A stretch of 64,000 nucleotides of DNA, taken from the NCBI RefSeq assembly GCF_001677475.2, contig NZ_CP015229.1. One strand, written 5' to 3'. The notes beneath the pieces were generated by a model. It was given only the letters and a program-made list of their open reading frames with translations. It made no database searches and was not told the DNA's origin. The position numbers and the translations under genes are program-made. The DNA is from Escherichia coli. Lineage in GTDB: Bacteria > Pseudomonadota > Gammaproteobacteria > Enterobacterales > Enterobacteriaceae. This document shows positions 6,259 to 47,554 of the stretch, in pieces; the first letter of the stretch is position 1; each line of letters starts with the position of its first letter.

Positions 6259-7074
6259 TCAACTATTGAAAGGAGCGATATTATCCAGCACCGCCTGAAT
6301 CACATTCAGCGCGCCTTCATGATTATTATCATCGGTAGCGTAACGGGCGATTTGTTTAATGTTTTCCGCAGCATTGCCCATCGCAAAGGAATAACGCGCC
6401 ATTTTCAGCATCTCCGCATCGTTACCGCTGTCGCCAATCGCTACCACATTTTGCGGTGACAGATCCCAGCGTTTCAGTAACCGCGAAATACCGTTTGCTT
6501 TATGTAGACCGGGAATAATCAGGTCGATAAAGCCAAAACCACTGGTAACGGGTTTCATAATGCCATCCAGCGCTATGTGCAGTTTGTCGATCACTAACGG
6601 GATTTGTTCATCCGGCAGGTTGAGCGAAAACTTGAACAGTACGTCGTCAATCTCCTGATAATCTTTTACAGGTTTCAGGCGATGGTAGTGTTTTGCCATC
6701 AGTGCGACGAATGCTTCGGGGGCGTTTTCGCTGACATATGCACTTTGCAGACCGCAGGCGACAAAATTGAGTTGCTTATCTTTTAGCAACTCGCCAATAA
6801 CAATCCGCGATTCATGTCGGGTCAGTTCGCCGTGGAACAACTGCTTGCCATGTTCGTAAACCAGTGCGCCGTTTTCCGCGACAAAAGAGATCTCATCCTT
6901 TAGCTCAGGAAAGAACGAAATAAGCTGGTAATACTGATTACCGCTGGCGACAACGAACTTAATGCCGCGCTTTTTCAGTTCCTGATATTGCGCCATAAAA
7001 CGTGGTTGGTTGTACGTTTTGGCGTCGTTAAGAAAAGTACCGTCCATGTCTGTGACGATAACTTTTACGCTCAT
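6259..7074 (-). CDS. ybiV: HAD-superfamily Cof-type sugar phosphatase YbiV
   Basis: 271-aa ORF with N-terminal HAD motif DMDGTFL and C-terminal GDSGNDAEM motif. Confidence 0.88.
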
Positions 7075-12175: not shown

Positions 12176-13410
12176 TACCGGCCTCCGAACAACGCGTTAA
12201 ACGGTTCTACTTCCACCCATTCGCCCACTTCCACATTGCCGCGATCGCGTTCCAGCACGATAAAGCAGTTGCCGAGACTAAATGAGCTAAATATATGTGA
12301 ACCCTGATGTCCGGTGGTCGTCACTTCAAGTTCGCCGTCGGCGTTGCGTTGCAGCACGCCGCGCTGGAAATCAAGCCGACCTGGCGTTTTCTTCAGGCGG
12401 GACGCTGTGCGTACGCGCTGGCGCTCGGGCAGGCCGCTGGCGGTGTTGCCGCTTAGTTTTGCCAGCAAAGGCTGTACCAGTTGATAGAAGGTCAACGTCG
12501 CTGAAACCGGGTTGCCCGGCAGGCCGCAGAACCAACTATTAGAAAGTTTTCCGAACGCGAACGGTTTACCCGGTTTAATCGCCAGCTTCCAGAAGGCGAT
12601 CTCCCCCAGCTCTTCAAGAATGGTTTTGGTGTAATCCGCTTCACCCACTGAAACACCGCCGGAACTGATCACCACATCCGCCTGGCTGTCGGCTTCAATA
12701 AATGCGGCGCGCAGGTCATGGGGATCGTCGCGGATAATCCCTAAGTTGATTACCTCGCATCCCAACTGTTCTAACATCAGGTGTACGGCGAGACGGTTGG
12801 TATCGTAGATTTGGCCGTCGCCCAGCGGCTGACCGGGCAACTGGAGTTCATCACCGGTAGAAAAAAGCGCTACACGCACTTTACGAATCACCGGAACTTC
12901 GGCAATCCCCAGTGAAGCAATCACTGGCAGTTCAGCGGTAGTCAGGCGAGTCCCCGCCGGGAAAACAACCGCACCTGCAGAGATATCTTCACCGCGACGG
13001 CGAATATTTTGCCCGCTACGCACTTCAGCAGTAAAACGCACGCCATTGTCAGTTTGTTCAGTCTGCTCCTGCATCACCACCGCTTCGCAGCCTTCCGGCA
13101 CCGGCGCACCGGTCATAATACGAATGCAGGTACCCGCAGGCCATTCACCATGGTACGGCTGACCGGCAAAGGATTTACCGGCAACGGGCAGCGGTTGCCC
13201 GGAGGCAATATCGGCTAAACGCACCGCGTAGCCGTCCATAGCGGAGTTATCAAACCCCGGAACATCAAGCGGCGAAACGACATCGCTCGCCAGAATACGA
13301 CCAAAACACTGAACCAGTGGCAGCGTTTCCTGGGCGGTCAGTGGGGTAACGCGAGAAAGCATCTCATTAAGCGCGGTGTCGAGCGACATCAATCCGGTGG
13401 TAAATTCCAT
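12175..13410 (-). CDS. moeA: Molybdopterin molybdenumtransferase MoeA
   Basis: 411-aa ORF; sequence and moeA-moeB operon arrangement with a 1-nt overlap. Confidence 0.9.
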
Positions 13411-13613
13411 GAAAACACTCCTGCGGAGGCAAAATCGAATTTGCCTATTATGTCAGAAAAACGCCACAGACTGTATGCCACCTCGGGCGTAGCGCTGGGT
13501 CCTGCCTTTACATGCCATATCCATCTTTCTATATTCAAAAATTGAATGAGTAATTCATAAAAATTCTGATATTTATAGCAAAAGTGGCGAGCCACCCTTA
13601 ATGGACGAATACT

Positions 13614-14579
13614 ATGGGCAAAGCAGTCATTGCAATTCATGGTGGCGCAGGTGCAATTAGCCGCGCGCAGATGAGTCTGCAACAGGAATTACGCTACATC
13701 GAGGCGTTGTCTGCCATTGTTGAAACCGGGCAGAAAATGCTGGAAGCGGGTGAAAGTGCGCTGGATGTGGTGACGGAAGCGGTGCGTCTGCTGGAAGAGT
13801 GTCCACTGTTTAACGCCGGAATTGGCGCTGTCTTTACGCGTGATGAAACCCATGAACTGGACGCCTGTGTGATGGATGGTAACACCCTGAAAGCCGGTGC
13901 GGTGGCGGGCGTTAGTCATCTGCGTAATCCGGTTCTTGCCGCCCGGCTGGTGATGGAGCAAAGCCCGCATGTGATGATGATTGGCGAAGGGGCAGAAAAT
14001 TTTGCGTTTGCTCATGGCATGGAGCGCGTCTCGCCGGAGATTTTCTCCACGCCTTTGCGTTATGAACAACTACTGGCAGCGCGCGAGGAAGGGGCAACAG
14101 TCCTCGACCATAGCGGTGCGCCACTGGATGAAAAACAGAAAATGGGCACCGTGGGGGCCGTGGCGTTGGATTTAGACGGTAATCTGGCGGCAGCCACGTC
14201 CACGGGCGGAATGACCAATAAATTACCCGGACGAGTTGGCGATAGCCCCTTAGTGGGTGCCGGATGCTACGCCAATAACGCCAGTGTGGCGGTTTCTTGT
14301 ACCGGCACGGGCGAAGTCTTCATCCGCGCGCTGGCGGCATATGACATCGCCGCGTTAATGGATTACGGCGGATTAAGTCTCGCGGAAGCCTGCGAGCGGG
14401 TAGTAATGGAAAAACTCCCTGCGCTTGGCGGTAGCGGTGGCTTAATCGCTATCGACCATGAAGGGAATGTCGCGCTACCGTTTAACACCGAAGGAATGTA
14501 TCGCGCCTGGGGCTACGCAGGTGATACGCCAACCACCGGTATCTACCGTGAAAAAGGGGACACCGTTGCCACACAGTGA
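13614..14579 (+). CDS. iaaA: Isoaspartyl dipeptidase / L-asparaginase family Ntn-hydrolase IaaA
   Basis: 321-aa ORF with the GTVGAVALD autoprocessing region; first gene of the iaaA-gsiABCD cluster. Confidence 0.88.
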
Positions 14580-16437
14580 TGAACTTGATGCCGGTGATGT
14601 GCTGGCGGTTGAAAATCTGAATATTGCCTTTATGCAGGACCAGCAGAAAATAGCTGCGGTCCGCAATCTCTCTTTTAGCCTGCAACGCGGTGAGACGCTG
14701 GCAATTGTTGGCGAATCCGGCTCCGGTAAGTCAGTGACTGCGCTGGCATTGATGCGTCTGTTGGAACAGGCGGGCGGTTTAGTACAGTGCGATAAAATGC
14801 TGTTGCGGCGGCGCAGTCGTGAAGTGATTGAACTTAGCGAGCAGAGCGCTGCACAAATGCGCCATGTGCGCGGTGCGGATATGGCGATGATATTTCAGGA
14901 GCCGATGACATCGCTGAACCCGGTATTTACTGTGGGTGAACAGATTGCCGAATCAATTCGTCTGCATCAGAACGCCAGTCGTGAAGAAGCGATGGTCGAG
15001 GCGAAGCGGATGCTGGATCAGGTACGCATTCCGGAGGCACAAACCATTCTTTCACGTTATCCGCATCAACTCTCTGGCGGGATGCGCCAGCGAGTGATGA
15101 TTGCGATGGCGCTGTCATGCCGCCCGGCGGTGCTGATTGCCGATGAGCCAACCACCGCGCTGGATGTCACTATTCAGGCACAGATCCTGCAATTAATCAA
15201 AGTATTGCAAAAAGAGATGTCGATGGGCGTTATCTTTATCACGCACGATATGGGCGTGGTGGCAGAGATTGCCGATCGGGTACTGGTGATGTATCAGGGC
15301 GAGGCGGTGGAAACGGGTACCGTCGAACAGATTTTTCATGCACCGCAACATCCTTACACCCGTGCGCTGTTAGCTGCTGTTCCGCAACTTGGTGCGATGA
15401 AAGGGTTAGATTATCCCCGACGTTTCCCGTTGATATCGCTTGAACATCCAGCGAAACAGGCCCCCCCCATCGAGCAGAAAACGGTGGTGGATGGCGAACC
15501 TGTTTTACGGGTGCGTAATCTGGTCACCCGTTTTCCTTTGCGCAGCGGTTTGTTGAATCGCGTAACGCGGGAAGTGCATGCCGTTGAGAAAGTCAGTTTT
15601 GATCTCTGGCCTGGCGAAACGCTATCGCTGGTGGGCGAGTCTGGCAGCGGTAAATCCACTACCGGGCGGGCGTTGCTGCGCCTGGTCGAATCGCAGGGCG
15701 GCGAAATTATCTTTAACGGTCAGCGAATCGATACCTTGTCACCCGGCAAACTTCAGGCATTGCGCCGCGATATTCAGTTTATTTTTCAGGACCCTTACGC
15801 TTCGCTGGACCCACGTCAGACCATCGGTGATTCGATTATCGAACCGCTGCGCGTACACGGTTTATTGCCAGGTAAAGAAGCGGCTGCCCGCGTTGCGTGG
15901 TTGCTGGAGCGCGTAGGCCTGTTACCGGAACATGCCTGGCGTTACCCTCATGAGTTTTCCGGCGGTCAGCGCCAGCGCATCTGCATTGCTCGCGCGTTGG
16001 CATTGAATCCAAAAGTGATCATTGCCGACGAAGCCGTTTCGGCGCTGGATGTTTCTATTCGCGGGCAGATTATCAACTTGTTGCTCGATCTCCAGCGTGA
16101 TTTCGGCATTGCGTATCTGTTTATCTCCCACGATATGGCCGTGGTAGAGCGGATTAGTCATCGTGTGGCGGTGATGTATCTCGGACAAATTGTTGAAATT
16201 GGTCCACGGCGCGCGGTCTTTGAAAATCCGCAGCATCCTTATACGCGTAAATTACTGGCGGCAGTTCCGGTCGCTGAACCGTCCCGACAACGACCGCAGC
16301 GTGTACTGCTGTCGGACGAGCTTCCCAGCAATATTCATCTGCGTGGCGAAGAGGTGGCAGCCGTCTCGTTGCAATGCGTCGGGCCGGGGCATTACGTCGC
16401 ACAACCACAATCAGAATACGCATTCATGCGTAGATAA
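14566..16437 (+). CDS. gsiA: Glutathione ABC transporter ATP-binding protein GsiA (two ABC cassettes)
   Basis: 623-aa product starting at TTG 14566 (PHSDELDAG...); two Walker A motifs (GESGSGKS twice); overlaps the iaaA 3' end by 14 nt. Confidence 0.82.
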
Positions 16438-16456
16438 CATTCAGGCGGAGAATAAA

Positions 16457-17995
16457 ATGGCAAGAGCTGTACACCGTAGTGGGTTAGTGGCGCTGGGCAT
16501 TGCGACAGCGTTGATGGCATCTTGTGCATTCGCTGCCAAAGATGTGGTGGTGGCGGTAGGATCGAACTTCACCACGCTCGATCCGTATGACGCAAATGAC
16601 ACGTTATCTCAGGCCATAGCGAAATCGTTTTACCAGGGGCTGTTTGGTCTGGATAAAGAGATGAAACTGAAAAACGTGCTGGCGGAGAGTTATTCCGTTT
16701 CCGATGACGGCCTTACATACATCGTGAAGTTGCGGGAAGGAATTAAATTCCAGGATGGCACCGACTTCAACGCAGCGGCGGTAAAAGCGAATCTGGACCG
16801 GGCCAGCGATCCGGCGAATCATCTTAAACGCTACAACCTGTATAAGAATATTGCCAAAACGGAAGCGATCGATCCAACAACGGTAAAGATTACCCTCAAA
16901 CAGCCGTTCTCAGCGTTTATTAATATTCTTGCCCATCCGGCGACCGCGATGATTTCGCCGGCAGCGCTGGAAAAATATGGCAAGGAGATTGGTTTTCATC
17001 CGGTGGGAACCGGGCCGTATGAACTGGATACCTGGAATCAGACCGATTTTGTGAAGGTGAAAAAATTCGCGGGTTACTGGCAGCCAGGATTGCCCAAACT
17101 GGACAGCATAACCTGGCGTCCGGTGGCGGATAACAACACCCGCGCGGCAATGCTGCAAACCGGTGAAGCGCAGTTTGCTTTCCCCATTCCCTACGAGCAG
17201 GCCGCACTGCTGGAGAAAAACAAAAATATCGAGTTGATGGCCAGTCCGTCAATTATGCAGCGTTATATCAGTATGAACGTGACGCAAAAGCCATTCGATA
17301 ACCCGAAGGTCCGTGAGGCGCTGAATTATGCCATTAACCGCCCGGCGCTGGTGAAAGTGGCCTTTGCGGGCTATGCAACGCCAGCTACTGGTGTGGTACC
17401 GCCGAGTATCGCCTACGCGCAAAGTTATAAACCATGGCCTTACGATCCAGTGAAAGCGCGCGAATTACTGAAAGAGGCGGGATATCCCAACGGTTTCAGT
17501 ACCACGCTGTGGTCGTCACATAACCACAGCACCGCGCAGAAAGTGCTGCAATTTACCCAGCAGCAGTTAGCGCAGGTCGGGATTAAAGCCCAGGTGACTG
17601 CGATGGATGCCGGACAGCGGGCGGCAGAAGTTGAAGGTAAAGGGCAAAAAGAGAGCGGCGTGCGGATGTTCTACACTGGCTGGTCGGCTTCAACCGGCGA
17701 AGCTGACTGGGCACTATCGCCACTGTTCGCCTCGCAAAACTGGCCACCGACGCTGTTTAATACCGCGTTTTACAGCAATAAACAGGTGGATGACTTCCTG
17801 GCTCAGGCACTGAAAACTAATGATCCGGCGGAAAAGACCCGCTTGTATAAGGCGGCGCAGGATATCATCTGGCAAGAGTCGCCGTGGATCCCGCTGGTGG
17901 TAGAAAAACTGGTGTCGGCACACAGTAAAAACCTGACCGGTTTTTGGATCATGCCAGACACCGGCTTCAGCTTTGAAGACGCGGATTTGCAATAA
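16457..17995 (+). CDS. gsiB: Glutathione ABC transporter periplasmic binding protein GsiB
   Basis: 512-aa product from ATG 16457 with signal peptide [26 protein letters not shown]; family-5 solute-binding protein. Confidence 0.88.
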
Positions 17996-18012
17996 GCAAC
18001 GCAGGGAGTGGA

Positions 18013-18933
18013 ATGCTTAATTACGTTATCAAACGCTTGCTGGGGTTGATTCCGACGCTGTTTATCGTCTCGGTGCTGGTGTTTTTATTTGTCCATATGC
18101 TGCCCGGCGATCCGGCGCGATTGATTGCCGGGCCCGAAGCTGATGCGCAGGTTATAGAACTGGTGCGTCAGCAGCTGGGGTTGGATCAGCCGCTGTATCA
18201 CCAGTTCTGGCACTATATCAGCAATGCTGTGCAGGGGGATTTTGGCCTGTCGATGGTGTCGCGTCGTCCGGTTGGCGATGAGATTGCCAGCCGCTTTATG
18301 CCAACGCTGTGGCTGACCATAACCAGTATGGTCTGGGCGGTGATATTTGGTATGGCGGCGGGAATTATCGCCGCCGTCTGGCGTAATCGTTGGCCGGATC
18401 GATTGAGTATGACCATTGCGGTGTCGGGGATCTCGTTTCCGGCATTTGCTCTGGGGATGCTTTTAATTCAGGTATTCTCCGTTGAACTGGGCTGGCTGCC
18501 TACCGTGGGAGCAGACAGTTGGCAGCACTACATTTTACCCTCCCTGACGCTCGGCGCGGCAGTGGCAGCCGTGATGGCGCGCTTTACCCGCGCGTCGTTT
18601 GTCGACGTTTTAAGCGAAGATTATATGCGTACCGCGAGGGCGAAAGGGGTGAGCGAAACCTGGGTTGTCCTCAAACACGGGCTACGCAACGCGATGATCC
18701 CGGTAGTGACCATGATGGGCTTACAGTTTGGCTTTTTGCTCGGTGGTTCCATCGTGGTGGAGAAAGTTTTCAACTGGCCCGGACTTGGACGCTTACTCGT
18801 TGACTCCGTAGAAATGCGCGATTACCCGGTGATTCAGGCGGAAATTCTGCTTTTCTCGCTGGAATTTATTCTTATCAACTTAGTGGTGGATGTGCTTTAC
18901 GCTGCCATTAACCCGGCTATCAGGTACAAGTAA
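18013..18933 (+). CDS. gsiC: Glutathione ABC transporter permease GsiC
   Basis: 306-aa hydrophobic ORF, DppB/OppB-like permease; synteny. Confidence 0.88.
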
Positions 18934-18935
18934 GG

Positions 18936-19847
18936 ATGCGACTATTTAACTGGCGACGTCAGGCGGTGTTAAACGCCATGCCACTGGTCAAACCTGACCA
19001 GGTACGTACACCGTGGCATGAATTCTGGCGACGATTTCGCCGTCAGCATATGGCGATGACCGCCGCATTATTCGTTATTTTATTGATTGTGGTGGCCATT
19101 TTTGCACGCTGGATCGCTCCCTATAACGCCGAAAATTATTTTGATTATGACAATCTGAATAACGGACCTTCTTTGCAGCACTGGTTTGGCGTCGATTCAC
19201 TGGGGCGCGACATTTTCAGCCGTGTCCTGGTTGGTGCGCAAATCTCGCTGGCGGCGGGCGTGTTTGCCGTGTTTATCGGTGCGGCGATAGGGACGTTGCT
19301 GGGCTTGCTGGCTGGATATTATGAAGGCTGGTGGGATCGGCTGATCATGCGCATTTGTGATGTGCTGTTTGCCTTCCCGGGTATTTTACTGGCGATCGCT
19401 GTTGTTGCGGTGTTGGGAAGCGGCATTGCTAACGTGATTATTGCAGTTGCCATTTTTTCCATCCCCGCGTTTGCCCGCCTGGTGCGCGGCAACACGCTGG
19501 TGTTGAAACAGCAAACCTTTATTGAGTCAGCACGCAGTATTGGTGCCAGCGATATGACCATTTTGTTGCGTCATATCCTGCCTGGGACCGTCTCTTCTAT
19601 CGTGGTGTTTTTCACCATGCGCATCGGTACCTCGATTATCTCTGCCGCCAGCCTGTCATTTCTCGGCCTCGGTGCGCAGCCGCCGACACCAGAGTGGGGA
19701 GCAATGCTCAATGAGGCACGAGCGGATATGGTTATCGCGCCGCATGTCGCTGTTTTTCCGGCCCTGGCTATTTTTCTGACCGTACTGGCGTTCAATTTGT
19801 TGGGCGATGGTTTACGCGATGCGCTGGATCCGAAAATTAAAGGATAG
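18936..19847 (+). CDS. gsiD: Glutathione ABC transporter permease GsiD
   Basis: 303-aa hydrophobic ORF, DppC/OppC-like permease; synteny. Confidence 0.88.
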
Positions 19848-20024
19848 TTACATTTGAATATTGCTTGAAAGAGTAATCACCTCACAGGAAATTATTGCCC
19901 TAAGCAAGTGTTGTAACTTTCTGCTGATTTTGTAGAATCGGGTAATTTGGTTAAAAAGCCGCAGCAAGGGACTGTTTTTGCAGCGGCACAGCGTTCAGAC
20001 AGTTATTTTGTTAAATGTATTAAC

Positions 20025-22373
20025 ATGCTGAGTTTATACGAAAAGATAAAGATAAGGCTGATAATTTTATTTTTATTGGCAGCACTGTCATTTATTGGCC
20101 TTTTTTTCATCATTAACTATCAACTGGTATCGGAACGCGCGGTAAAACGTGCCGATAGCCGCTTTGAACTTATTCAGAAAAACGTTGGCTATTTCTTTAA
20201 AGATATTGAACGTTCGGCCCTGACATTAAAGGACTCACTGTATTTATTAAAAAATACAGATGAGATTCAACGCGCCGTGATCCTGAAAATGGAAATGATG
20301 CCATTTTTAGACTCGGTGGGACTGGTACTTGATGATAATAAATATTATCTCTTTTCGCGGAGGGCGAATGATAAAATCGTTGTTTATCATCAGGAACAAG
20401 TAAATGGACCGCTTGTCGACGAGTCAGGACGGGTTATTTTTGCCGATTTTAATCCATCGAAACGACCGTGGTCGGTGGCTTCAGATAACTCTAACAACAG
20501 CTGGAATCCGGCATACAATTGCTTTGATCGTCCGGGTAAAAAATGTATCTCTTTTACGCTACACATCAACGGCAAAGATCACGATTTGTTAGCGGTGGAT
20601 AAAATTCATGTCGATTTAAACTGGCGATATCTGAACGAGTATCTTGATCAAATCAGCGCTAATGATGAAGTTCTATTTTTGAAACAAGGCCATGAGATCA
20701 TTGCCAAGAATCAACTCGCTCGTGAAAAACTGATTATTTATAATAGCGAAGGTAATTATAATATTATTGATTCTGTCGATACTGAATATATCGAAAAAAC
20801 ATCAGCGGTGCCAAACAACGCATTATTCGAAATCTATTTTTATTATCCTGGCGGTAATTTATTGAACGCATCAGATAAACTTTTTTATCTGCCGTTTGCG
20901 TTCATTATTATCGTATTGCTGGTGGTTTATTTAATGACCACTCGTGTGTTCCGTCGGCAATTTTCTGAAATGACAGAGCTGGTTAATACGCTGGCGTTTT
21001 TGCCTGACTCAACGGATCAGATCGAGGCTCTGAAAATTCGCGAAGGCGATGCGAAAGAGATTATCAGCATCAAAAATTCGATCGCGGAAATGAAAGATGC
21101 CGAAATTGAACGGGCAAATAAATTGCTCTCGCTGATCTCTTACGATCAGGAAAGCGGTTTTATTAAAAATATGGCGATTATTGAGTCCAACAATAATCAG
21201 TATCTGGCTGTGGGGATCATCAAACTATGTGGTCTGGAAGCCGTGGAAGCGGTGTTTGGTGTTGATGAACGCAATAAAATCGTCAGGAAATTGTGTCAGC
21301 GAATTGCCGAGAAATATGCGCAATGCTGCGATATCGTGACATTTAATGCCGATCTCTATTTACTTCTGTGCCGGGAAAATGTACAGACATTTACCCGTAA
21401 AATAGCGATGGTAAACGATTTTGACAGCAGCTTTGGCTACCGCAATCTGCGCATCCATAAGTCTGCTATTTGTGAACCTTTGCAGGGAGAAAACGCCTGG
21501 AGTTACGCAGAAAAACTGAAACTGGCGATTTCCAGTATCCGTGACCATATGTTCTCAGAGTTTATTTTCTGTGATGACGCGAAACTCAACGAAATAGAAG
21601 AGAATATCTGGATTGCGCGTAATATTCGCCATGCAATGGAAATTGGCGAACTATTCCTGGTCTATCAACCGATCGTTGATATTAACACCCGCGCTATTCT
21701 GGGCGCGGAGGCGTTGTGCCGTTGGGTGTCTGCGGAGCGGGGGATCATTTCACCGCTGAAGTTCATTACCATTGCTGAAGATATCGGGTTTATCAATGAG
21801 CTGGGTTATCAGATTATTAAAACGGCAATGGGTGAATTCAGACATTTTAGTCAGCGTGCGTCGCTGAAGGATGATTTCTTACTGCATATTAATGTTTCGC
21901 CCTGGCAGTTAAACGAACCACACTTTCATGAGCGTTTTACCACCATCATGAAAGAAAATGGCCTGAAGGCAAACAGCCTCTGTGTTGAGATCACTGAAAC
22001 CGTGATCGAACGAATTAATGAACATTTTTATCTCAATATTGAACAACTGCGTAAACAAGGGGTACGGATATCGATTGATGACTTTGGCACCGGTTTGTCA
22101 AACCTGAAACGTTTTTATGAAATTAATCCAGACAGCATAAAGCTGGACTCGCAATTTACCGGCGATATTTTCGGTACTGCGGGAAAAATTGTGCGCATTA
22201 TTTTCGAGCTGGCACGCTATAACCGGATCCCGGTGATTGCGGAAGGCGTAGAGAGCGAAGACGTTGCGCGCGAATTAATCAAATTAGGATGTGTTCAGGC
22301 TCAGGGGTATCTGTACCAGAAACCCATGCCATTCTCCGCCTGGGATAAAAGTGGAAAATTAGTAAAAGAGTAG
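20025..22373 (+). CDS. pdeI: Putative c-di-GMP phosphodiesterase PdeI (YliE); membrane-anchored EAL-domain protein
   Basis: 782-aa product from ATG 20025; N-terminal TM helix, C-terminal EAL region (EALCRW, DDFGTG); AT-rich. Confidence 0.82.
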
Positions 22374-22380
22374 TTTACGT

Positions 22381-23709
22381 ATGTCCAGAATCAATAAGTT
22401 CGTACTTACAGTCAGTCTGCTGATTTTTATCATGATTTCAGCAGTTGCCTGCGGGATCTACACTCAAATGGTAAAGGAACGGGTGTATGGCCTGAAACAG
22501 TCCGTTATTGATACTGCTTTTGCGGTGGCAAATATTGCTGAATATCGGCGTAGCGTGGCAATTGATCTTATCAACACGCTAAATCCCACGGAGGAACAGC
22601 TGTTGGTTGGCTTGCGCACAGCTTACGCCGACTCGGTTTCACCCTCTTATTTGTACGATGTCGGTCCTTATCTGATTTCCAGTGACGAATGTATTCAGGT
22701 AAAGGAGTTCGAGAAAAATTATTGTGCAGATATTATGCAGGTTGTGAAGTATCGACATGTCAAAAATACAGGGTTTATCTCTTTTGACGGTAAAACCTTC
22801 GCCTATTACCTCTATCCGGTAACTCACAATCGCAGTCTGATATTTTTGCTTGGTCTGGAGCGTTTTTCTTTACTGTCAAAATCGCTGGCGATGGACAGCG
22901 AGAACCTGATGTTCTCTCTGTTTAAGAACGGTAAACCGGTGACCGGTGATGAATATAATGCTAAAAACGCCATCTTCACCGTTTCGGAAGCGATGGAGCA
23001 CTTCGCCTATTTGCCGACCGGATTGTACGTATTTGCGTATAAAAAAGATGTTTATTTGCGGGTTTGTACATTGATTATTTTCTTTGCCGCATTGGTGGCA
23101 GTGATATCGGGTGCCAGTTGCCTCTATCTGGTACGCAGAGTGATTAATCGTGGTATTGTGGAGAAAGAATCCATTATTAATAACCATTTTGAACGCGTAC
23201 TGGATGGCGGGCTTTTCTTTTCGGCTGCCGATGTCAAAAAACTCTACAGTATGTATAACTCGGCGTTCCTGGACGACCTGACCAAAGCAATGGGCAGAAA
23301 ATCCTTTGACGAAGATTTAAAAGCGCTGCCGGAAAATGGCGGTTATTTGTGCCTGTTTGACGTCGATAAATTCAAAAACATTAACGACACCTTCGGTCAT
23401 TTGCTGGGCGATGAAGTGTTGATGAAAGTGGTGAAAATCCTTAAATCACAGATCCCGGTAGATAAAGGTAAAGTCTACCGCTTCGGAGGTGACGAATTTG
23501 CGGTGATTTATACTGGCGGCACGCTGGAAGAGTTGCTATCAATTCTAAAAGAAATCGTTCATTTCCAGGTGGGAAGCATTAATTTAAGCACCAGTATCGG
23601 TGTAGCGCATTCAAATGAATGTACTACCGTCGAACGCTTGAAAATGCTGGCGGATGAGCGGCTGTATAAGAGTAAGAAAAACGGCAGGGCACAGATTAGC
23701 TGGCAGTAA
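22381..23709 (+). CDS. dgcI: Putative diguanylate cyclase DgcI (YliF); GGDEF-domain membrane protein
   Basis: 442-aa ORF with degenerate GGDEF-type active-site motif RFGGDEF; N-terminal TM helix; downstream of pdeI. Confidence 0.82.
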
Positions 23710-23755
23710 TCATTATTCGCAGGCCGGACAAATGATTTTGCCCGGCCTGAATTAA

Positions 23756-25081
23756 TTAAACCCGGCTACCCCACAAATCGTACTCATCGGCGTGCTCGAC
23801 TTTCACACGCAGGATATCACCCGGCTTAACGTTGGTTTCACCATTGAGATAAACCGCGCCGTCGATTTCCGGTGCATCTGCCATGCTGCGACCAATCGCG
23901 CCTTCTTCGTCCACTTCGTCGATAATCACCAGAATTTCACGGCCCACTTTCTCTTGCAGGCGCTCGGCGGAAATCTGCTGCTGCAACTGCATGAAACGGT
24001 TCCAGCGTTCTTCTTTCACTTCTTCCGGAACCTGGTCAGGCAGGGCATTGGCGTCTGCACCTTCAACCGGGCTGTATTTAAAGCAGCCAACGCGATCCAG
24101 ACGTGCTTCTTTCAGGAAGTCGAGTAGCATCTGGAAATCTTCTTCCGTCTCGCCAGGGAAGCCGACAATAAAGGTTGAGCGTAGGGTCAGTTCCGGGCAG
24201 ATTTCGCGCCACTGTTTGATGCGCGCCAGTTGGCGATCTACAGAACCCGGACGCTTCATCAGTTTGAGAATGCGCGGGCTGGCGTGCTGCAACGGAATGT
24301 CCAGATACGGCAGGATTTTGCCTTCTGCCATCAGTGGGATGACGTCGTCCACATGCGGATAAGGGTAAACGTAGTGCAGACGCGTCCAGATCCCCAGTTT
24401 CGATAACTGTTCGCACAGGCTGACCATGCTGGTTTTTACCGGCTCGCCGTTGTGGAAGCCAGTACGATGTTTAACATCGACGCCATAGGCGGAAGTATCC
24501 TGCGAGATCACCAGAATCTCTTTAACGCCCGCATCAACCAGACGTTTAGCTTCGCTTAACACTTCGCCAATCGGACGGCTCACCAGGTCGCCGCGCATAG
24601 ACGGAATAATGCAGAAGGTGCAGCGGTGATTACAGCCTTCAGAAATTTTCAGATAGGCATAATGACGCGGCGTCAGTTTCACACCTTGTTCTGGCACCAG
24701 GCTCAGGAATGGGTTGTGTTTCGGTTTTGGCACGTAGTGATGAACGTGCTCCAGAACCTGCTCATAGCTATGAGGCCCGGTGATTTCCAGCACTTTCGGG
24801 TGGACTTCGCGGATCTGATCTTCTTTTGCCCCCAGACAACCGGTCACAATTACCTTGCCGTTTTCATTCAACGCTTCACCAATGGCTTCCAGTGATTCTT
24901 GTACCGCGCTGTCAATAAAGCCGCAGGTGTTGACGATCACCATGTCCGCATCGTCATAGCTCGGTACCACGTCATAACCTTCAGTGCGTAGTTCGGTGAG
25001 AATACGCTCTGAATCGACAAGGTTTTTCGGACAGCCAAGGGAAACAAAGCCGATTTTCGGCTGGGGAGTTACTTTGCTCAT
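23756..25081 (-). CDS. rimO: Ribosomal protein S12 methylthiotransferase RimO (radical SAM, MiaB family)
   Basis: 441-aa ORF with radical-SAM motif CNHRCTFC and N-terminal MTTase Cys residues. Confidence 0.9.
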
Positions 25082-25293
25082 AGCTTAAAAAATATTCAGT
25101 TACAGGAAAGGTCAGGGCAGGGATTCTACAGAGTTCTGGATAAAATTTGTATCGCAATCTCATTCGCTGGCGGAGGCGAAGGAAATGTAAATTTTGTTAA
25201 TTCGGCGTGAAGAATTGATCCTGGACAGCATTTTGCTCAAAAAATAGCCATACTATTTAATTGCAACAAGGCTGGAAAGAGGAGGATCGAAGT

Positions 25294-25677
25294 ATGTTCG
25301 TTGACAGACAGCGAATCGATCTGCTGAACCGGTTGATCGACGCACGCGTTGACCTCGCTGCATACGTGCAACTGAGGAAGGCAAAAGGATACATGTCCGT
25401 CAGCGAAAGCAATCATCTACGAGATAACTTTTTTAAACTGAATCGCGAACTGCACGATAAATCTCTGCGGTTGAATCTTCATCTGGATCAGGAAGAGTGG
25501 AGTGCTCTTCATCATGCTGAAGAAGCATTAGCGACAGCCGCAGTATGTTTGATGAGTGGGCACCATGATTGCCCGACTGTTATTACCGTCAACGCCGATA
25601 AGCTTGAAAATTGTCTGATGAGCTTAACGCTGAGTATCCAGAGCCTGCAGAAGCACGCCATGCTTGAGAAGGCCTGA
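25294..25677 (+). CDS. bssR: Biofilm regulator BssR (YliH)
   Basis: 127-aa product from MFVDRQRIDLL; internal ATG chosen over the ORF-track start at 25261. Confidence 0.8.
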   Translation: MFVDRQRIDLLNRLIDARVDLAAYVQLRKAKGYMSVSESNHLRDNFFKLNRELHDKSLRLNLHLDQEEWSALHHAEEALATAAVCLMSGHHDCPTVITVNADKLENCLMSLTLSIQSLQKHAMLEKA

Positions 25678-25787
25678 AAACTAAGGGGGAGAAAGCGCCT
25701 CCCCCTTCATGTTTAAGTTTTTGTAAAAATGAATTTGTTATCTCCTCCACTGACTACGCTTTAAGCCAGAGTCAATCCGGAGGCGTT

Positions 25788-26903
25788 ATGCATCGACAAT
25801 TCTTTTTCCTTGTGCCCCTTATTTGTCTTACTTCCGCTCTCTGGGCGGCTCCTGCAACGGTAAATGTCGAAGTACTGCAAGACAAACTCGACCATCCCTG
25901 GGCGCTGGCCTTTTTACCCGACAATCACGGTATGTTAATCACGCTGCGCGGCGGCGAGTTGCGTCACTGGCAAGCAGGAAAAGGATTATCTGCGCCGCTT
26001 TCCGGAGTGCCGGACGTTTGGGCGCACGGGCAGGGCGGCCTGCTGGACGTGGTTTTAGCGCCTGATTTTGCTCAGTCTCGCCGCATCTGGTTAAGTTATT
26101 CCGAAGTTGGCGATGATGGCAAAGCCGGAACTGCTGTGGGTTATGGCCGCTTAAGTGATGATCTCTCAAAAGTGACCGACTTCCGCACCGTCTTTCGCCA
26201 GATGCCAAAACTGTCTACCGGCAACCATTTTGGCGGGCGGCTGGTATTCGACGGTAAAGGTTATCTTTTTATTGCTCTGGGCGAAAACAATCAGCGCCCG
26301 ACGGCGCAGGATCTGGATAAATTACAGGGCAAACTGGTGCGTCTGACCGACCAGGGCGAAATCCCGGATGATAATCCTTTTATAAAGGAATCCGGTGCGC
26401 GCGCCGAGATCTGGTCTTATGGCATTCGTAATCCACAAGGAATGGCGATGAATCCGTGGAGTAAAGCACTATGGCTGAATGAACATGGCCCGCGCGGTGG
26501 TGATGAAATTAATATCCCGCAAAAAGGCAAAAACTACGGCTGGCCGCTGGCAACCTGGGGAATCAACTATTCGGGCTTTAAGATACCGGAGGCGAAAGGG
26601 GAGATCGTCGCCGGGACCGAGCAACCTGTTTTTTACTGGAAAGATTCGCCCGCCGTGAGCGGCATGGCCTTCTATAACAGCGATAAATTCCCCCAGTGGC
26701 AGCAAAAATTATTTATTGGCGCGCTGAAAGATAAAGATGTCATTGTGATGAGCGTCAACGGCGACAAAGTGACAGAAGATGGCCGTATTTTAACGGACAG
26801 AGGGCAGCGAATTCGTGATGTTCGCACTGGACCCGACGGTTATTTATACGTTCTCACCGACGAGTCCAGTGGGGAATTACTTAAAGTTAGCCCACGCAAT
26901 TAG
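25788..26903 (+). CDS. yliI: PQQ-dependent soluble aldose sugar dehydrogenase YliI
   Basis: 371-aa ORF with signal peptide; beta-propeller glucose/sorbosone dehydrogenase-like sequence. Confidence 0.85.
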
Positions 26904-27526
26904 CTAACGGGAATCATCACCACTTTGCGCACTGCTGGGCGTTCAGTGAGTTGCTGATACCAGCGTTGCAGATTTGGACGCGGTGTCCAGGTCAGGCCAA
27001 CGTTAAACAAATTGTAGATGAACGGAGCGATAGCGATATCGCCCACACCAAACTCGTCGCCAGAGAACCATTTTACTTTTGCCAGTTCCGCATCGAGCAG
27101 GGCAAACAGGGCGTCGCACTCTTTGCAACTGGCATCAATGGCGGCCCGATCGCGCTCTTCCGGTGGTGTTCTGACTAATCCCATCAGGATCCCGCGATGG
27201 GCATTACTGAGTGTCTGGTTTGCCCAGTCCATCCATTTTTCTGCTTCCGCACGACGTGCCGGTGAGTCGATCCACAGACGTTTTTGCCCGTACTGTGCCG
27301 CCAGATAGCGGACAATGGCGTTTGATTCCCAAAGAATGAGATCACTTTCGTCGTCACGCAACAACGGCACCAGCCCGTTAGGGTTCATCGCCAGAAAATC
27401 AGCATCGTGATTTATCCCAAACTCACGGCCCGCGAGAATTTGCTCATAAGGTAGTTCCAGTTCTTCGAGCGTCAGCAATACTTTTTTTACGTTGGTTGAA
27501 TTATTCCGACCCCACAGCGTAATCAT
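26900..27526 (-). CDS. gstB: Glutathione S-transferase GstB
   Basis: 208-aa product from MITLWGR; GST fold; convergent 4-nt overlap with yliI. Confidence 0.85.
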
Positions 27527-27772
27527 ACTCACCCCTTTTCCGACAGGCAGCCACAGGCTGAACAGGACTCTGATGGTGAAGTAAAGTTAACTTTTAAGCA
27601 ACAGCTGGCAAAAAAATGACACCAGAAGCAGCGAAGCGGCAGGATATTGCATAAACTTTAAAAACTTTACCAACTTACGGTTTCTTTAAGTTTGTGTGTG
27701 CGTTATTAATCACCGAACTTATCATACGGCGATATAACGTATTTTTTTTGAATGGATACTCGGGTGGCATTT

Positions 27773-28975
27773 ATGACGCAATACTCCTCTCTCCTTCGTG
27801 GTCTTGCAGCGGGTTCTGCATTTTTATTCCTTTTTGCCCCAACGGCATTCGCGGCGGAACAAACCGTTGAAGCGCCGAGCGTGGATGCGCGTGCATGGAT
27901 TTTAATGGATTACGCCAGCGGTAAAGTGCTGGCAGAAGGCAATGCGGATGAGAAACTGGATCCCGCAAGCCTGACTAAAATCATGACCAGCTATGTGGTT
28001 GGGCAGGCGCTTAAGGCCGATAAGATTAAACTCACCGATATGGTGACGGTCGGTAAAGATGCCTGGGCGACGGGAAATCCGGCACTGCGTGGTTCATCGG
28101 TAATGTTCCTCAAACCGGGCGATCAGGTTTCGGTGGCAGACTTGAACAAAGGTGTGATTATCCAGTCCGGTAATGACGCCTGTATTGCGCTGGCTGATTA
28201 CGTTGCCGGGAGCCAGGAGTCATTTATTGGTCTGATGAATGGTTATGCCAAAAAACTGGGTCTGACCAACACTACCTTCCAGACGGTGCACGGCCTGGAT
28301 GCGCCGGGGCAGTTCAGTACCGCGCGCGATATGGCATTGCTGGGTAAAGCATTAATCCACGATGTGCCGGAAGAGTACGCCATTCATAAAGAGAAAGAGT
28401 TCACCTTCAACAAAATTCGTCAGCCTAACCGTAACCGTCTGCTGTGGAGCAGCAATCTGAATGTTGATGGCATGAAGACAGGAACCACTGCAGGCGCGGG
28501 ATATAATCTGGTTGCTTCGGCTACCCAGGGTGATATGCGTTTAATCTCCGTAGTGCTGGGGGCGAAAACTGACCGTATCCGTTTTAATGAGTCTGAGAAA
28601 TTATTGACCTGGGGTTTCCGCTTCTTTGAAACCGTGACGCCAATTAAACCTGATGCCACCTTTGTGACTCAGCGCGTCTGGTTTGGTGATAAGAGCGAAG
28701 TGAATCTCGGGGCAGGTGAAGCGGGCTCAGTGACCATACCGCGTGGGCAGCTGAAAAACCTGAAAGCGAGTTATACGTTAACGGAACCGCAGCTCACCGC
28801 GCCGCTGAAAAAAGGTCAGGTTGTCGGCACCATTGATTTCCAGCTTAACGGTAAATCTATTGAACAGCGTCCGCTGATCGTGATGGAAAATGTGGAAGAG
28901 GGCGGATTCTTTGGTCGGATGTGGGATTTCGTGATGATGAAATTCCATCAGTGGTTCGGCAGCTGGTTCTCTTAA
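27773..28975 (+). CDS. dacC: D-alanyl-D-alanine carboxypeptidase DacC (PBP6)
   Basis: 400-aa product; active-site motifs SLTK, SGN and KTG; signal peptide. Confidence 0.9.
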
Positions 28976-29021
28976 TTTTGTGATAACCGGATGGCGCGAA
29001 ACGTCATCCGGTTATACGTCA

Positions 29022-29780
29022 TTAATACATCAACTTAATACGCTGCGTCTGCGCGTACTTCACATATTCATCTTCCGGGCAACAATCGCTCACCATAATA
29101 TCAAAGCGTTTCAGGTCACCCATGCGCGCCGGACGCACCTTGCCAAATTTACTGTGGTCGACAACCAGCACATGCTTTTGCGCCATCGACATGGCCCAGT
29201 GTTTTACCGGCAACTCTTCAAGATTAAAACAGGTAGCGCCTTTACTGACATGCACGCCCGCCGCAGAATAAAAAGCGATATCCGGGCAAAAATTATTCAG
29301 CGTTTGCTGAAAATCGATGGGTTTGAAAATGGCGTTGCTGGCGTGAAATTCACCACCGCAAAGAAACGCGCGGCAATGGGGTTTCTCTTTCAGCGCCAGA
29401 AAGGTATTTAGCGAATAACAAACGGCGGTAAAAGGGATTTCATTATCAATCGCTTCAATAATCCACGGTGTGGTGGTGCCACAGTCAAAAAAGAGGGTCT
29501 GATCGGGTTCTACCAGCGTCGCAGCCAGTTTTGCCGCCCGGCGTTTTTCTTCCACCAGGCGGGATTTTTGATCGCTTAACAGGTAATGGCTGGCACTGCG
29601 CGGTTCCAGAACAATATAGCCGCCGAGCAAAACGACGGGCGCACTGTGGTTGTTCAGATCGCGACGAATCGTCATCTCCGAAACCCCAAGCAGGGCGGCG
29701 GCGTCTTTAAGATGTAACTTATCGCTGCGTTTTAATTCTTGCAGCAGCTGCCCGATACGCTCTTCGCGACGTGTTTCCAT
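29022..29780 (-). CDS. deoR: Deoxyribose operon repressor DeoR
   Basis: 252-aa ORF with N-terminal helix-turn-helix; DeoR-family sequence. Confidence 0.88.
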   Translation of the reverse strand: METRREERIGQLLQELKRSDKLHLKDAAALLGVSEMTIRRDLNNHSAPVVLLGGYIVLEPRSASHYLLSDQKSRLVEEKRRAAKLAATLVEPDQTLFFDCGTTTPWIIEAIDNEIPFTAVCYSLNTFLALKEKPHCRAFLCGGEFHASNAIFKPIDFQQTLNNFCPDIAFYSAAGVHVSKGATCFNLEELPVKHWAMSMAQKHVLVVDHSKFGKVRPARMGDLKRFDIMVSDCCPEDEYVKYAQTQRIKLMY

Positions 29781-29837
29781 AATCCCTCTGAATAGTTATT
29801 GAAGCGAGCCGCTCAATACTACACTTTTTAGCAGAGA

Positions 29838-30434
29838 TCAGTCACGCACCCAGCCTTTGCGGATCGGTAATGCAAAACAGAAGCGATACCACGATTGCAG
29901 ACGTTGATAGAGTTTATGCCCTATCGCTTGCCAGATAATCTGGGCGCTAAGGCAGCCAATCATACCTGCCAGCAATCCACCGAGCATATCCAGCGGCCAG
30001 TGGACGCCAAGATAAACGCGCGACCAGGCAATGACGACGGCCAGCACCATTAAAAGTGAGCCGGACCACAGGCGATGCCAGCATAAAAATGCCAGTGCAA
30101 AGGTGAAAATCACCGTACCGTGATCGCTCGGGAATGAGTCATCCGCCGCATGATGCAGGAAGTTATAGCCGATATTTTCGACAAAGGGTCGGTCGTGCGG
30201 AAAAAGATGCCCCATCGTCCAGGACACAAACAGGCTGACCGCCAGCGCAATAGCGATTTTTATCACCAGTTGCCGTTGTGCTGTAAGCCCCCACAGCCAA
30301 AGTATCGCGGCCAGCAACGGCACCACGGTAATCAAATCTTTAGCAATAAAAATCGCCAACGAGATCATCCACGGCGCAGAGTCTGGCGTCGCGTTAATAA
30401 GAGAGAATAGAGAGAGATTCAAATTTTCCAGCAT
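29838..30434 (-). CDS. ybjG: Undecaprenyl-pyrophosphate phosphatase YbjG (PAP2 family)
   Basis: 198-aa product from MLENLNLSLF; PAP2 motifs (PSDHG, SRVYLGVHWPLD). Confidence 0.85.
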   Translation of the reverse strand: MLENLNLSLFSLINATPDSAPWMISLAIFIAKDLITVVPLLAAILWLWGLTAQRQLVIKIAIALAVSLFVSWTMGHLFPHDRPFVENIGYNFLHHAADDSFPSDHGTVIFTFALAFLCWHRLWSGSLLMVLAVVIAWSRVYLGVHWPLDMLGGLLAGMIGCLSAQIIWQAIGHKLYQRLQSWYRFCFALPIRKGWVRD

Positions 30435-32361: not shown

Positions 32362-33177
32362 TTATTGGTTAAATGGCGCTTCGTGTTTAAGAACTTTATC
32401 GATCACATCCAGTACGCCTTCACGGTTATTGGAGCCTGCCCGGTATTTTGCCGCTGCGACGACCGCGCTGCCGGCATTTTCCATTGCAAAACTAAAGCCT
32501 GCCTGACGCAGCATCTCAATATCGTTACCGCCATCGCCAAAGACCACCACTTCGCTGTCGTCTATTCCCCATAATTTCTGCAGTTGGCGAAGGCCATTGG
32601 CTTTATGTACGCCGGGGATAATCAGATCGATGCTGCCGTTGCCGGTGTGGACCGGCACCATAATATCGCCGATGGCCTCATGTAATGCTTTTTGTACTTG
32701 TGGAATCAGTTCATCGGAAAGATTCAGACCAAACTTAAAGAAGATATCTTCTAAGTTGTCAAAGTTATCGACGTATTCCAGACGGTGATAATACATTTCC
32801 GCCACCGTTTTCATGGCATCGTCATATTTTTTGAGGGTATAGGCGCTATTTTTTCCGCAGGCAATAATTTCCACTTCCGGGCGCGTCAGCAAATGTTCCA
32901 CGACAGTAGCAAACGCATCCTTCGACAGCTCGCCATTAAAAACATCTTTGCCTTCGCTCACTACCCAGCCGCCGTTTTCAGCCACAAAGGCTATTTCATT
33001 AGCAATTTCCGGAAAGAAAGAGATCAACTGATAATATTGATTCCCGCTGGCGACCACAAAGCGAATGCCTTGTGCTTTCATTTGCTGATACTGAGCCATA
33101 AACCGCTCACGGTTATAGGTTTTTTGATCGCTTAAGAAAGTACCATCCATGTCTACCGCAATTAATTTAATGCTCAT
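32362..33177 (-). CDS. ybjI: HAD-superfamily Cof-type phosphatase YbjI (FMN/5-amino-6-ribitylamino-uracil phosphate phosphatase)
   Basis: 271-aa product from ATG ending at 33177; HAD motifs DMDGTFL and GDGGNDIEM; start overlaps ybjJ stop (TGATG). Confidence 0.85.
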   Translation of the reverse strand: MSIKLIAVDMDGTFLSDQKTYNRERFMAQYQQMKAQGIRFVVASGNQYYQLISFFPEIANEIAFVAENGGWVVSEGKDVFNGELSKDAFATVVEHLLTRPEVEIIACGKNSAYTLKKYDDAMKTVAEMYYHRLEYVDNFDNLEDIFFKFGLNLSDELIPQVQKALHEAIGDIMVPVHTGNGSIDLIIPGVHKANGLRQLQKLWGIDDSEVVVFGDGGNDIEMLRQAGFSFAMENAGSAVVAAAKYRAGSNNREGVLDVIDKVLKHEAPFNQ

Positions 33178-47442: not shown

Positions 47443-47554
47443 GATGGAACTCCCGTCTGTCAATCTTATGATTTTTGGCCGTGTCTGCGGCATGGGATAA
47501 CAATGCCATCAAGTGAATTTATATGCAATAAATATGATTAAATAATTTAAATGA

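Follow-up and report, generated by a model that had tools for sequence, protein, structure and literature searches.

In a 64,000-nucleotide stretch of the Escherichia coli chromosome (NZ_CP015229.1; hereafter the window), we identify the c-di-GMP genes pdeI and dgcI, located between gsiD and rimO, as probably an old foreign operon that arrived with its own promoter from an AT-rich source, is bound by H-NS, and encodes a pair of proteins that make and break c-di-GMP. An ancient acquisition had been proposed in the original prediction for this DNA. It is supported by junctions that are empty in outgroups, synonymous divergence equal to that of the flanks, G+C that is low at all codon positions, and relatives that are exclusively of a plasmid type.

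The pair is the known E. coli operon pdeI-dgcI in a strain-specific version. In K-12, pdeI (yliE, b0833) and dgcI (yliF, b0834) occupy the same gsiD-rimO locus, and their proteins have the same lengths (782 and 442 aa) and domains. The pair is 97.4-98.9% identical in nucleotide sequence to the sampled E. coli genomes, and nothing of substance differs. The operon, its composition, and its link to H-NS are all already known. Also in the window, iaaA is intact and ~99% identical to its K-12 counterpart.

The features of the locus are collected in Table 1. The original prediction had placed the module at 19947-23709. Its end holds, while its start is off by 78 nt: position 19947 is the TTG start of a mechanically called open reading frame, and the ATG annotated in E. 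coli genomes (giving 782 aa) is at 20025.

Table 1. Features of the gsiD-rimO locus in the window
Feature	Position	Strand	Basis and remarks
gsiD	18936-19847	+	Left flank, outside the insert; Pfam BPD_transp_1 and OppC_N; named gsiD in E. coli annotation; G+C 0.527
177-nt upstream region	19848-20024	+	Missing from empty sites; would have arrived with the insert
Promoter-like site TTGTAA-16-TAGAAT	19911-19938	+	Promoter scan
pdeI (yliE)	20025-22373	+	782 aa; Pfam CHASE9 and EAL
dgcI (yliF)	22381-23709	+	442 aa; Pfam GAPES2 and GGDEF
H-NS high-affinity motif TCGATAAATT	23363-23372	+	Inside dgcI; sole perfect match in the 64-kb window; a motif match only
Hairpin CAGGCCGG-14 nt-CCGGCCTG	23720-23749		Between the dgcI and rimO stops; read from the sequence
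rimO	23756-25081	-	Right flank; Pfam UPF0004, Radical_SAM, and TRAM_2; G+C 0.528

The two proteins and their plasmid-type relatives

PdeI comprises a transmembrane segment, a dCache-like CHASE9 periplasmic sensor, a second transmembrane segment, a linker, a degenerate GGDEF-like region, and an EAL domain, an architecture assigned according to the Romling preprint (bioRxiv 10.1101/2025.05.09.653004). Within the degenerate region, FNADLY replaces GGDEF (read by eye); a Pfam search of residues ~297-545 for degenerate GGDEF or HAMP domains returned nothing significant. The EAL domain matches PF00563 over the full profile length (E = 9.4e-70, residues 558-793). All of its catalytic and metal-binding motifs are present (EALCR, NVSP, EITE, DDFGTG, EGVESE, and QGY), in agreement with the motif table for the CFT073 orthologue (PMC3484386). 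Judged by these motifs, the EAL site of PdeI is intact, and the protein would be expected to degrade c-di-GMP. Overexpressed PdeI blocks the c-di-GMP-dependent infection by phage N4, as other phosphodiesterases do (PMC7553319). A study in eLife reports that PdeI raises c-di-GMP (PMC11651652), which conflicts with a simple phosphodiesterase role.

DgcI consists of a transmembrane segment, a dCache-like GAPES2 periplasmic sensor, a second transmembrane segment, and a GGDEF diguanylate cyclase domain (PF00990, E = 2.2e-25) whose active-site motif is intact (RFGGDEF). The RxxD I-site is absent from its place five residues upstream of GGDEF, where DgcI has VDKG; many members of the family have this site, but it is not required. 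The I-site entry for YliF in CFT073 is likewise nonconsensus (PMC3484386). Among four cyclases tested, the Shigella flexneri DgcI produced the highest c-di-GMP, an effect abolished by a GG-to-AA mutation (PMC11327459).

Both periplasmic domains are modeled as a tandem PAS-like fold following a long N-terminal helix, which is consistent with the N-terminal membrane or periplasmic sensors without a known ligand that had been predicted for the two proteins. They share only 5-16% identity with solved structures of the extracytoplasmic ligand-binding dCache (tandem PAS/PDC) domains found in chemoreceptors, histidine kinases, and diguanylate cyclases, such as McpU, PctA, KinD, and LuxQ. Since Pfam assigns them to CHASE9 and GAPES2 only and to no Cache family, we describe these sensors as folding like dCache domains rather than as members of that group. 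Sequence comparison rejected a common origin of the two sensors, with an hhalign probability of 0.2%. Each sensor has a conserved cysteine pair (C104/C115 in DgcI, C166/C174 in PdeI) that might form a disulfide.

PdeI orthologues were found in Escherichia only. A HMMER search with the PdeI sensor region against 1.84 billion representatives gave 35 matches, all of them PdeI fragments or weaker paralogues, and the named paralogue clusters belong to E. coli, E. fergusonii, or Salmonella enterica. With the GAPES2 profile, 44 matches were obtained, and all those with names are from E. coli or Shigella. Thus, among the billions of proteins searched, no relatives of either sensor were detected beyond Escherichia and Shigella except in paralogous pairs. 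These pairs (34-42% identity) are found mainly on Escherichia plasmids, with a few in S. enterica, which agrees with the YliE/YliF-like plasmid pairs described previously (bioRxiv 10.1101/2025.05.09.653004). The PdeI-like paralogue is 34% identical over 762 aa, and the DgcI-like proteins are 39-42% identical. Of 110 matching plasmid records, 102 carry paralogues of <60% identity and 8 carry copies that are at least 95% identical.

The plasmid-type pairs share gene order, AT-richness, and full-length architectures with the pair in the window, and the spacing between their genes is 9 nt, as against 7 nt from the pdeI stop to the dgcI start. They adjoin plasmid maintenance, raffinose, or cellulose-synthesis genes, whereas the window pair is chromosomal. 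The one plasmid-type pair that was measured lies beside ccdAB/kfrA and has a G+C of 0.34 (GC3 0.285), compared with 0.42-0.44 for the chromosomal pair.

These relatives bear on a further reading, which we put forward tentatively and think unlikely. That is, the operon might be an Escherichia-specific, self-contained, transferable make/break cassette whose chromosomal copy was captured once from the plasmid pool, where paralogues are reported beside exopolysaccharide operons, and PdeI might mainly regulate DgcI through its degenerate GGDEF-like domain. If PdeI does regulate DgcI, the raised c-di-GMP would be reconciled with the intact EAL site.

Base composition

The prediction that pdeI and dgcI are AT-richer than gsiD and rimO agrees with our measurements: G+C is 41.5% for pdeI (GC1 0.49, GC2 0.31, GC3 0.45) and 43.7% for dgcI (GC3 0.50), against 52.7-52.8% for the two flanking genes and 0.507 for the entire window. 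In both genes, all three codon positions are low in G+C (GC1 0.48-0.49, GC2 0.31-0.33). The first 300 nt of pdeI, previously estimated at under 40%, have a mean of ~0.35 (0.28, 0.39, and 0.37 in successive 100-nt bins). Sliding-window G+C falls from 0.53-0.57 in gsiC and gsiD to 0.37-0.46 over ~19750-23750 and returns to 0.53-0.54 in rimO, a dip over the pair that sets it apart from its flanks.

The 3685-nt gene pair has a G+C of 0.4225, while other segments of the same length have a mean of 0.512 (sd 0.033; z = -2.7). Equally low segments elsewhere in the window all overlap a second AT-rich gene (51983-53752). A likelihood fit with two change-points, which improves on a uniform model by 50 log-likelihood units, delimits the low-GC block as 19831-23645, and both change-points lie near the edges of the pair (gsiD stop, 19847; dgcI stop, 23709). 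The G+C of the pair is therefore clearly under that of the host (0.42 versus 0.51-0.53), with boundaries at the edges of the element.

Low G+C could also be intrinsic, arising from the amino acid make-up of membrane sensors together with weak codon bias in rarely expressed native genes. Amino acid composition does lie partly behind the low GC1 and GC2 values, and the expression of the genes is very low (PMC5635695). The G+C of K-12 pdeI is 0.416, and a G+C of 0.46 or less was seen in six of the nine further K-12 c-di-GMP genes sampled, among them cdgI (0.385), dgcT (0.386), bluF (0.436), pdeG (0.446), and pdeC (0.447). Thus, many E. coli c-di-GMP genes are AT-rich, pdeI-dgcI being no special case, and composition alone is weak evidence for a foreign origin. 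An intrinsic cause is nevertheless already disfavored, and we consider it improbable, given the sharp compositional steps at the edges of the pair, the clean empty sites in outgroups, the lack of any sensor homologue beyond Escherichia/Shigella and the plasmid-type paralogues, and the still more AT-rich composition of the measured paralogue. Of the GC3 shift from the value of that paralogue to that of the host (~0.58), pdeI has covered ~55% and dgcI ~74%.

The gsiD-rimO junction and the age of the insert

A comparison across about 10 Enterobacterales, with Salmonella left out, found the gsiD-rimO junction empty in four outgroup genomes (Enterobacter sp. Bisph1, Citrobacter werkmanii, Enterobacter sp. 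BIGb0383, and Mangrovibacter). In these, gsiD and rimO are convergent with stops 38-101 bp apart, and the three shortest spacers contain a hairpin. Two further genomes carry other cargo at the junction. The pair is present at the junction in 5425 of 5426 complete E. coli genomes (5380 cover at least 80% of the query), and in E. albertii and E. fergusonii with the same synteny. The junction is a site of gene turnover, and the spacer neighboring the pair also takes cargo, such as a RelE/ParE pair in O157.

The hairpin in the window resembles that of the empty C. werkmanii site (GTAGGCCGG...CCGGCCTAC). On this sequence likeness, it appears to be a terminator-like element that the gsiD-rimO junction has kept from its ancestral state, and to mark the right edge of the insert. 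No direct or inverted repeats and no target-site duplication were found at the insert boundaries; a 12-nt exact repeat, TCTGCTGATTTT (19920 and 22416), considered as a boundary scar, is probably due to chance. The classical marks of a genomic island are absent: there are no flanking repeats, no recombinase or integrase gene, and no adjacent tRNA, and the insert holds two genes only. A scan of positions 13000-30000 gave no match to an Rfam RNA family.

Measured against E. albertii, the pair has a dS of 0.63-1.10, the gsiBCD/rimO flanks have one of 0.53-0.89, and dN/dS is 0.05-0.06; the full range given for dN/dS of the pair is ~0.05-0.08. This indicates that pdeI-dgcI is old and under purifying selection. 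In E. fergusonii, both the pair and its flanks have diverged from E. coli to roughly the same extent as the gsi genes of Citrobacter, which suggests a very old insertion, near the split between Escherichia and Citrobacter. The strongly diverged block of E. fergusonii has its start at gsiA.

The same divergence, together with the turnover at the junction, could be accommodated if the pair were ancestral to Enterobacteriaceae and had been lost separately in Citrobacter, Enterobacter, Mangrovibacter, and others. We hold this to be as improbable as an intrinsic cause of low G+C: it would require several precise deletions, each leaving a spacer of 38-101 bp, with no remnant or homologue in other genera among billions of proteins, and it leaves the atypical composition unexplained. 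A recent or still-mobile island spreading among E. coli strains, to which the eight near-identical plasmid copies, the plasmid-borne divergent paralogues, and the cargo-accepting spacer might point, is already contradicted by the distribution and divergence data (a single locus in nearly every E. coli genome, synteny kept in E. albertii and E. fergusonii, dS equal to that of the flanks, and neither terminal repeats nor recombinase genes found) and can hardly be entertained.

H-NS binding, expression, and the proposed origin

In published data, the AT-rich DNA of pdeI-dgcI is bound by H-NS. The ChAP-seq tables of Higashi et al. (2016) list three parts of the locus as bound, namely yliF, the spacer between yliD and yliE, and yliEF as a transcription unit (PMC4720273, S2/S3 Tables); the strains were K-12, SE11, and SE15, which do not include the window strain, grown in LB at 37°C only. 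The orthologue table of that study includes yliF and the upstream spacer and omits pdeI itself, and it gives yliF as "L/N" in the column for horizontally transferred genes (PMC4720273). In pdeI, a pattern search located H-NS motif sites with one mismatch at 20785-20794 and 20856-20865. The earlier suggestion of H-NS control therefore stands as far as binding is concerned (PMC4720273); control we infer.

The spacer between gsiD and pdeI contains the known yliEF promoter (PMC4720273, S3 Table), and the promoter-like core ATTTTGTAGAATC is invariant across E. coli, E. albertii, and E. fergusonii. Internal promoter-like sites show no excess (9, against 9.3 expected from shuffles), although this is a weak test because the shuffles preserve AT-richness. 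In K-12, DgcI protein is undetectable, and the study showing this refers to previous work in which dgcI expression was very low, if any (PMC5635695). In CFT073, both pdeI and dgcI are up at 37°C relative to 23°C (PMC12890032).

The pair resembles the H-NS-bound, anciently transferred core genes described previously (PMC4720273), being likewise AT-rich, near-universal in E. coli, bound, and labeled as transferred. Its nonsynonymous change relative to E. albertii is also faster than that of its neighbors (dN 0.033-0.066, versus 0.001-0.024 for gsiBCD and rimO), which matches a general finding of the same study.

We propose that a segment of ~3.87 kb (~19848-23715), comprising the promoter region and the operon pdeI-dgcI, was acquired as an old horizontal insertion. 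On the branch leading to Escherichia, it would have inserted between the stop codon of gsiD and the hairpin common to gsiD and rimO, and it would have been vertically inherited since. Its source would have been AT-rich, with the chromosomal copy having drifted part-way to the composition of its host, chiefly through changes at third codon positions. H-NS on the AT-rich insert may keep basal expression low, with relief at 37°C or in subpopulations of a biofilm, as the expression reports suggest. The two inner-membrane proteins, with their unrelated periplasmic sensors, would then act as a two-input c-di-GMP make/break pair, in which DgcI makes c-di-GMP without a feedback I-site and PdeI degrades it, its degenerate GGDEF-like domain being probably regulatory.

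On this account, pdeI-dgcI would be a clean textbook case of a foreign, AT-rich signaling operon turned core gene set, one that still shows where the insertion took place and which terminator hairpin was kept, and whose composition has moved only part of the way to that of the host.

Base composition

The window covers an unremarkable part of the E. coli chromosome, running through moeAB, iaaA, gsiABCD, pdeI, dgcI, rimO, bssR and onwards. In sliding windows, G+C falls from 0.53-0.57 in gsiC/gsiD to 0.37-0.46 at about 19750-23750, and returns to 0.53-0.54 in rimO. This confirms the predicted dip relative to the flanks, at the predicted place. The first 300 nt of pdeI, estimated earlier at under 40% G+C, have a computed mean of about 0.35. 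The start of 19947 was misplaced, being the TTG of a mechanical ORF; the annotated start of pdeI is an ATG (20025). Together, the two genes (3685 nt) lie 2.7 standard deviations under other windows of equal length, and the only equally low windows elsewhere overlap an unrelated AT-rich gene. A two-change-point fit (gain 50 log-likelihood units) places the edges of the low-GC block near the gsiD and dgcI stops.

Coordinates and base composition of features in the window
Feature	Position	Strand	GC	GC1	GC2	GC3
Whole window			0.507
Paralogous gene 1	6259-7074	-	0.456-0.468
gsiD	18936-19847	+	0.527
Low-GC block (fitted)	19831-23645
Proposed insert	about 19848-23715
Promoter-like sequence (predicted)	19911-19938
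12-nt repeat	19920-19931; 22416-22427
pdeI	20025-22373	+	0.415	0.49	0.31	0.45
PdeI C166, C174 (from residue numbers)	20520-20522; 20544-20546
dgcI	22381-23709	+	0.437	0.48	0.33	0.50
DgcI C104, C115 (from residue numbers)	22690-22692; 22723-22725
Convergent junction by rimO end	23710-23755
Hairpin	23720-23749
rimO	23756-25081	-	0.528
Paralogous gene 2	32362-33177	-	0.456-0.468
Third gene of somewhat low G+C	46711-47493	-	0.456-0.468
Pentapeptide-repeat gene	51983-53752	+	0.32

The unrelated gene, the most AT-rich in the window, encodes a 589-aa pentapeptide-repeat protein and is accessory: of 5426 complete E. coli genomes, just 1122 cover at least 80% of the stretch. Of three more genes with somewhat low G+C, two encode paralogous 271-aa proteins, with DMDGTFL common to both N-termini.

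Six of nine other K-12 c-di-GMP genes measured do not exceed 0.46 G+C, with cdgI and dgcT at 0.385-0.386; thirty neighboring genes average 0.51. AT-richness is thus usual for E. coli c-di-GMP genes, which makes the composition of pdeI-dgcI less surprising.

Insertion site and relatives

Of 5426 complete E. coli genomes, 5425 have the pdeI-dgcI region (5380 with at least 80% query coverage); identity in sampled matches is 97.4-98.9%. A few have IS1 deletions, or a toxin-antitoxin pair inserted. We surveyed the junction by a genome scan anchored on RimO, inspecting the sequence past its stop codon. The pair occupies the same junction in E. albertii and E. fergusonii, and an orthologue is present in E. 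marmotae. Four outgroup junctions (Enterobacter sp. Bisph1, Citrobacter werkmanii, Enterobacter sp. BIGb0383, and Mangrovibacter) are empty, with gsiD and rimO convergent across a 38-101 bp spacer. Each of the three shortest spacers (38-54 bp) contains a hairpin, and a similar one, CAGGCCGG...CCGGCCTG, is retained beside rimO in the window. Thus, the insert would lie between the gsiD stop and this hairpin. At its edges, a search for flanking repeats, a recombinase, a tRNA, or an RNA family match found none.

Relative to E. albertii, dS is 0.63-1.10 for pdeI-dgcI, comparable to 0.53-0.89 for the gsiBCD/rimO flanks, and dN/dS of the pair is 0.05-0.06. These values indicate that the pair has descended vertically, with purifying selection acting on it from the Escherichia ancestor onward at the latest. 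Its protein change is roughly two- to fourfold faster than that of the gsi genes. The predicted ancient acquisition is supported by the empty outgroup junctions, the occupied Escherichia junctions, and these dS values. In the E. albertii NBRC 107761 draft (locus L002, 4052-6400), the pdeI frame is broken near its 5' end (longest ORF 743 aa, from GTG); PdeI is intact at 782 aa in other E. albertii genomes (protein P0122).

Full-length PdeI and DgcI orthologues occur in Escherichia and Shigella only. A HMMER search of the PdeI sensor region against 1.84 billion cluster representatives gave 35 matches, all PdeI fragments or weaker paralogue matches; named paralogue clusters are from E. coli, E. 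fergusonii, or Salmonella enterica. The GAPES2 profile gave 44 matches among 5.8 billion proteins, the named ones all E. coli or Shigella. The plasmid-type paralogues, adjoining ccdAB and kfrA, share the chromosomal gene order: a 772-aa PdeI-like gene (34% protein identity to PdeI over 762 aa), a 9 nt gap, and a 448-aa DgcI-like gene (39-42% to DgcI). Among 110 plasmid records that carry this unit, 109 are from Escherichia; such homologues and their confinement to Escherichia have been described (bioRxiv 10.1101/2025.05.09.653004). The plasmid unit has 0.34 G+C overall and a GC3 of 0.285. The chromosomal pair has similar GC2 but higher GC3, which looks like partial drift to host composition. 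We infer transfer from the plasmid pool to the chromosome.

The junction by the rimO end is a cargo hotspot across the compared genomes. O157:H7 strains carry a RelE/ParE toxin and HTH antitoxin between dgcI and rimO (locus L087, 4780-5485), and E. albertii has a 237-aa HEAT-repeat ORF there (L002, 2016-2729). A homologue of the latter, with SUKH-like, DUF4288, and metallophosphatase ORFs, lies in the rimO-gsiD interval of Superficieibacter (L003, 11448-14286).

We also compared E. fergusonii CU928158.2 997071-1015419 (L083) with window 14566-29780. For moeB and moeA, divergence from the E. coli genes is normal (nucleotide identity 91-92.5%, dS 0.28-0.43). Throughout gsiA-deoR, a block of at least 15 kb that includes pdeI-dgcI, each gene is only 70-86% identical, with dS of 1.1-2.7, about the divergence of Citrobacter gsi genes; iaaA is absent at the left edge. 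The stretch resembles either an old, divergent haplotype or a block that was replaced, with pdeI-dgcI already aboard.

H-NS and expression

H-NS ChAP-seq of K-12, SE11, and SE15 (LB, 37 C; Higashi et al. 2016, PMC4720273) records pdeI-dgcI as the transcription unit yliEF, which is H-NS bound, as is the yliD-yliE spacer, site of its promoter (S2 and S3 Tables). There, yliF is bound even under the stricter definition and is marked "L/N" for horizontal transfer, a label we read as the Lawrence-Ochman and Nakamura predictions cited there. Because gsiD is also bound, and rimO under the looser definition only, the signal spills into neighboring genes. DgcI is toxic when induced and undetectable in K-12, and the authors cite earlier work that found very low expression of its gene, if any (PMC5635695); in CFT073, both genes are higher at 37 C than at 23 C (PMC12890032). 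The one perfect TCGATAAATT motif match in 64 kb lies inside dgcI. The motif, low K-12 expression, and 37 C rise are consistent with H-NS binding. Binding is thus documented, and we infer H-NS control.

The predicted promoter-like TTGTAA-16-TAGAAT is kept even in E. fergusonii. Two identical 12-nt copies of TCTGCTGATTTT stand in direct orientation, one within the pdeI promoter region and one just inside dgcI; the repeat is probably chance.

Predicted functions and significance

PdeI (782 aa; CHASE9 and EAL in Pfam) keeps all EAL catalytic motifs, with a degenerate GGDEF-like stretch, FNADLY, upstream. The gene for DgcI (442 aa; GAPES2 and GGDEF) begins 7 nt past the end of pdeI. The protein carries RFGGDEF and has no RxxD feedback site; of four cyclases tested, c-di-GMP was highest with its S. 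flexneri orthologue (PMC11327459). Reports on PdeI conflict: its overexpression stops c-di-GMP-dependent N4 phage infection, like other phosphodiesterases (PMC7553319), but an eLife study found an 11-fold c-di-GMP rise dependent on G412 in the degenerate domain (PMC11651652). Speculatively, PdeI regulation of its neighbor DgcI would square the two. Each periplasmic sensor domain has a cysteine pair, invariant across chromosomal orthologues and 20-35%-identical plasmid-type paralogues, hinting at a disulfide bond with a structural or redox-sensing role.

The G+C observation is confirmed, and the evidence supports its interpretation. Earlier publications already cover the genes, the prediction that they are foreign, their H-NS occupancy, and their plasmid relatives. 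Our searches add that no sensor homologue was found beyond Escherichia/Shigella and the plasmid-type paralogues. Modest additions are the mapped empty site with its retained hairpin and the E. fergusonii side observation; a further one is the dCache-like fold predicted by modeling for both sensors.
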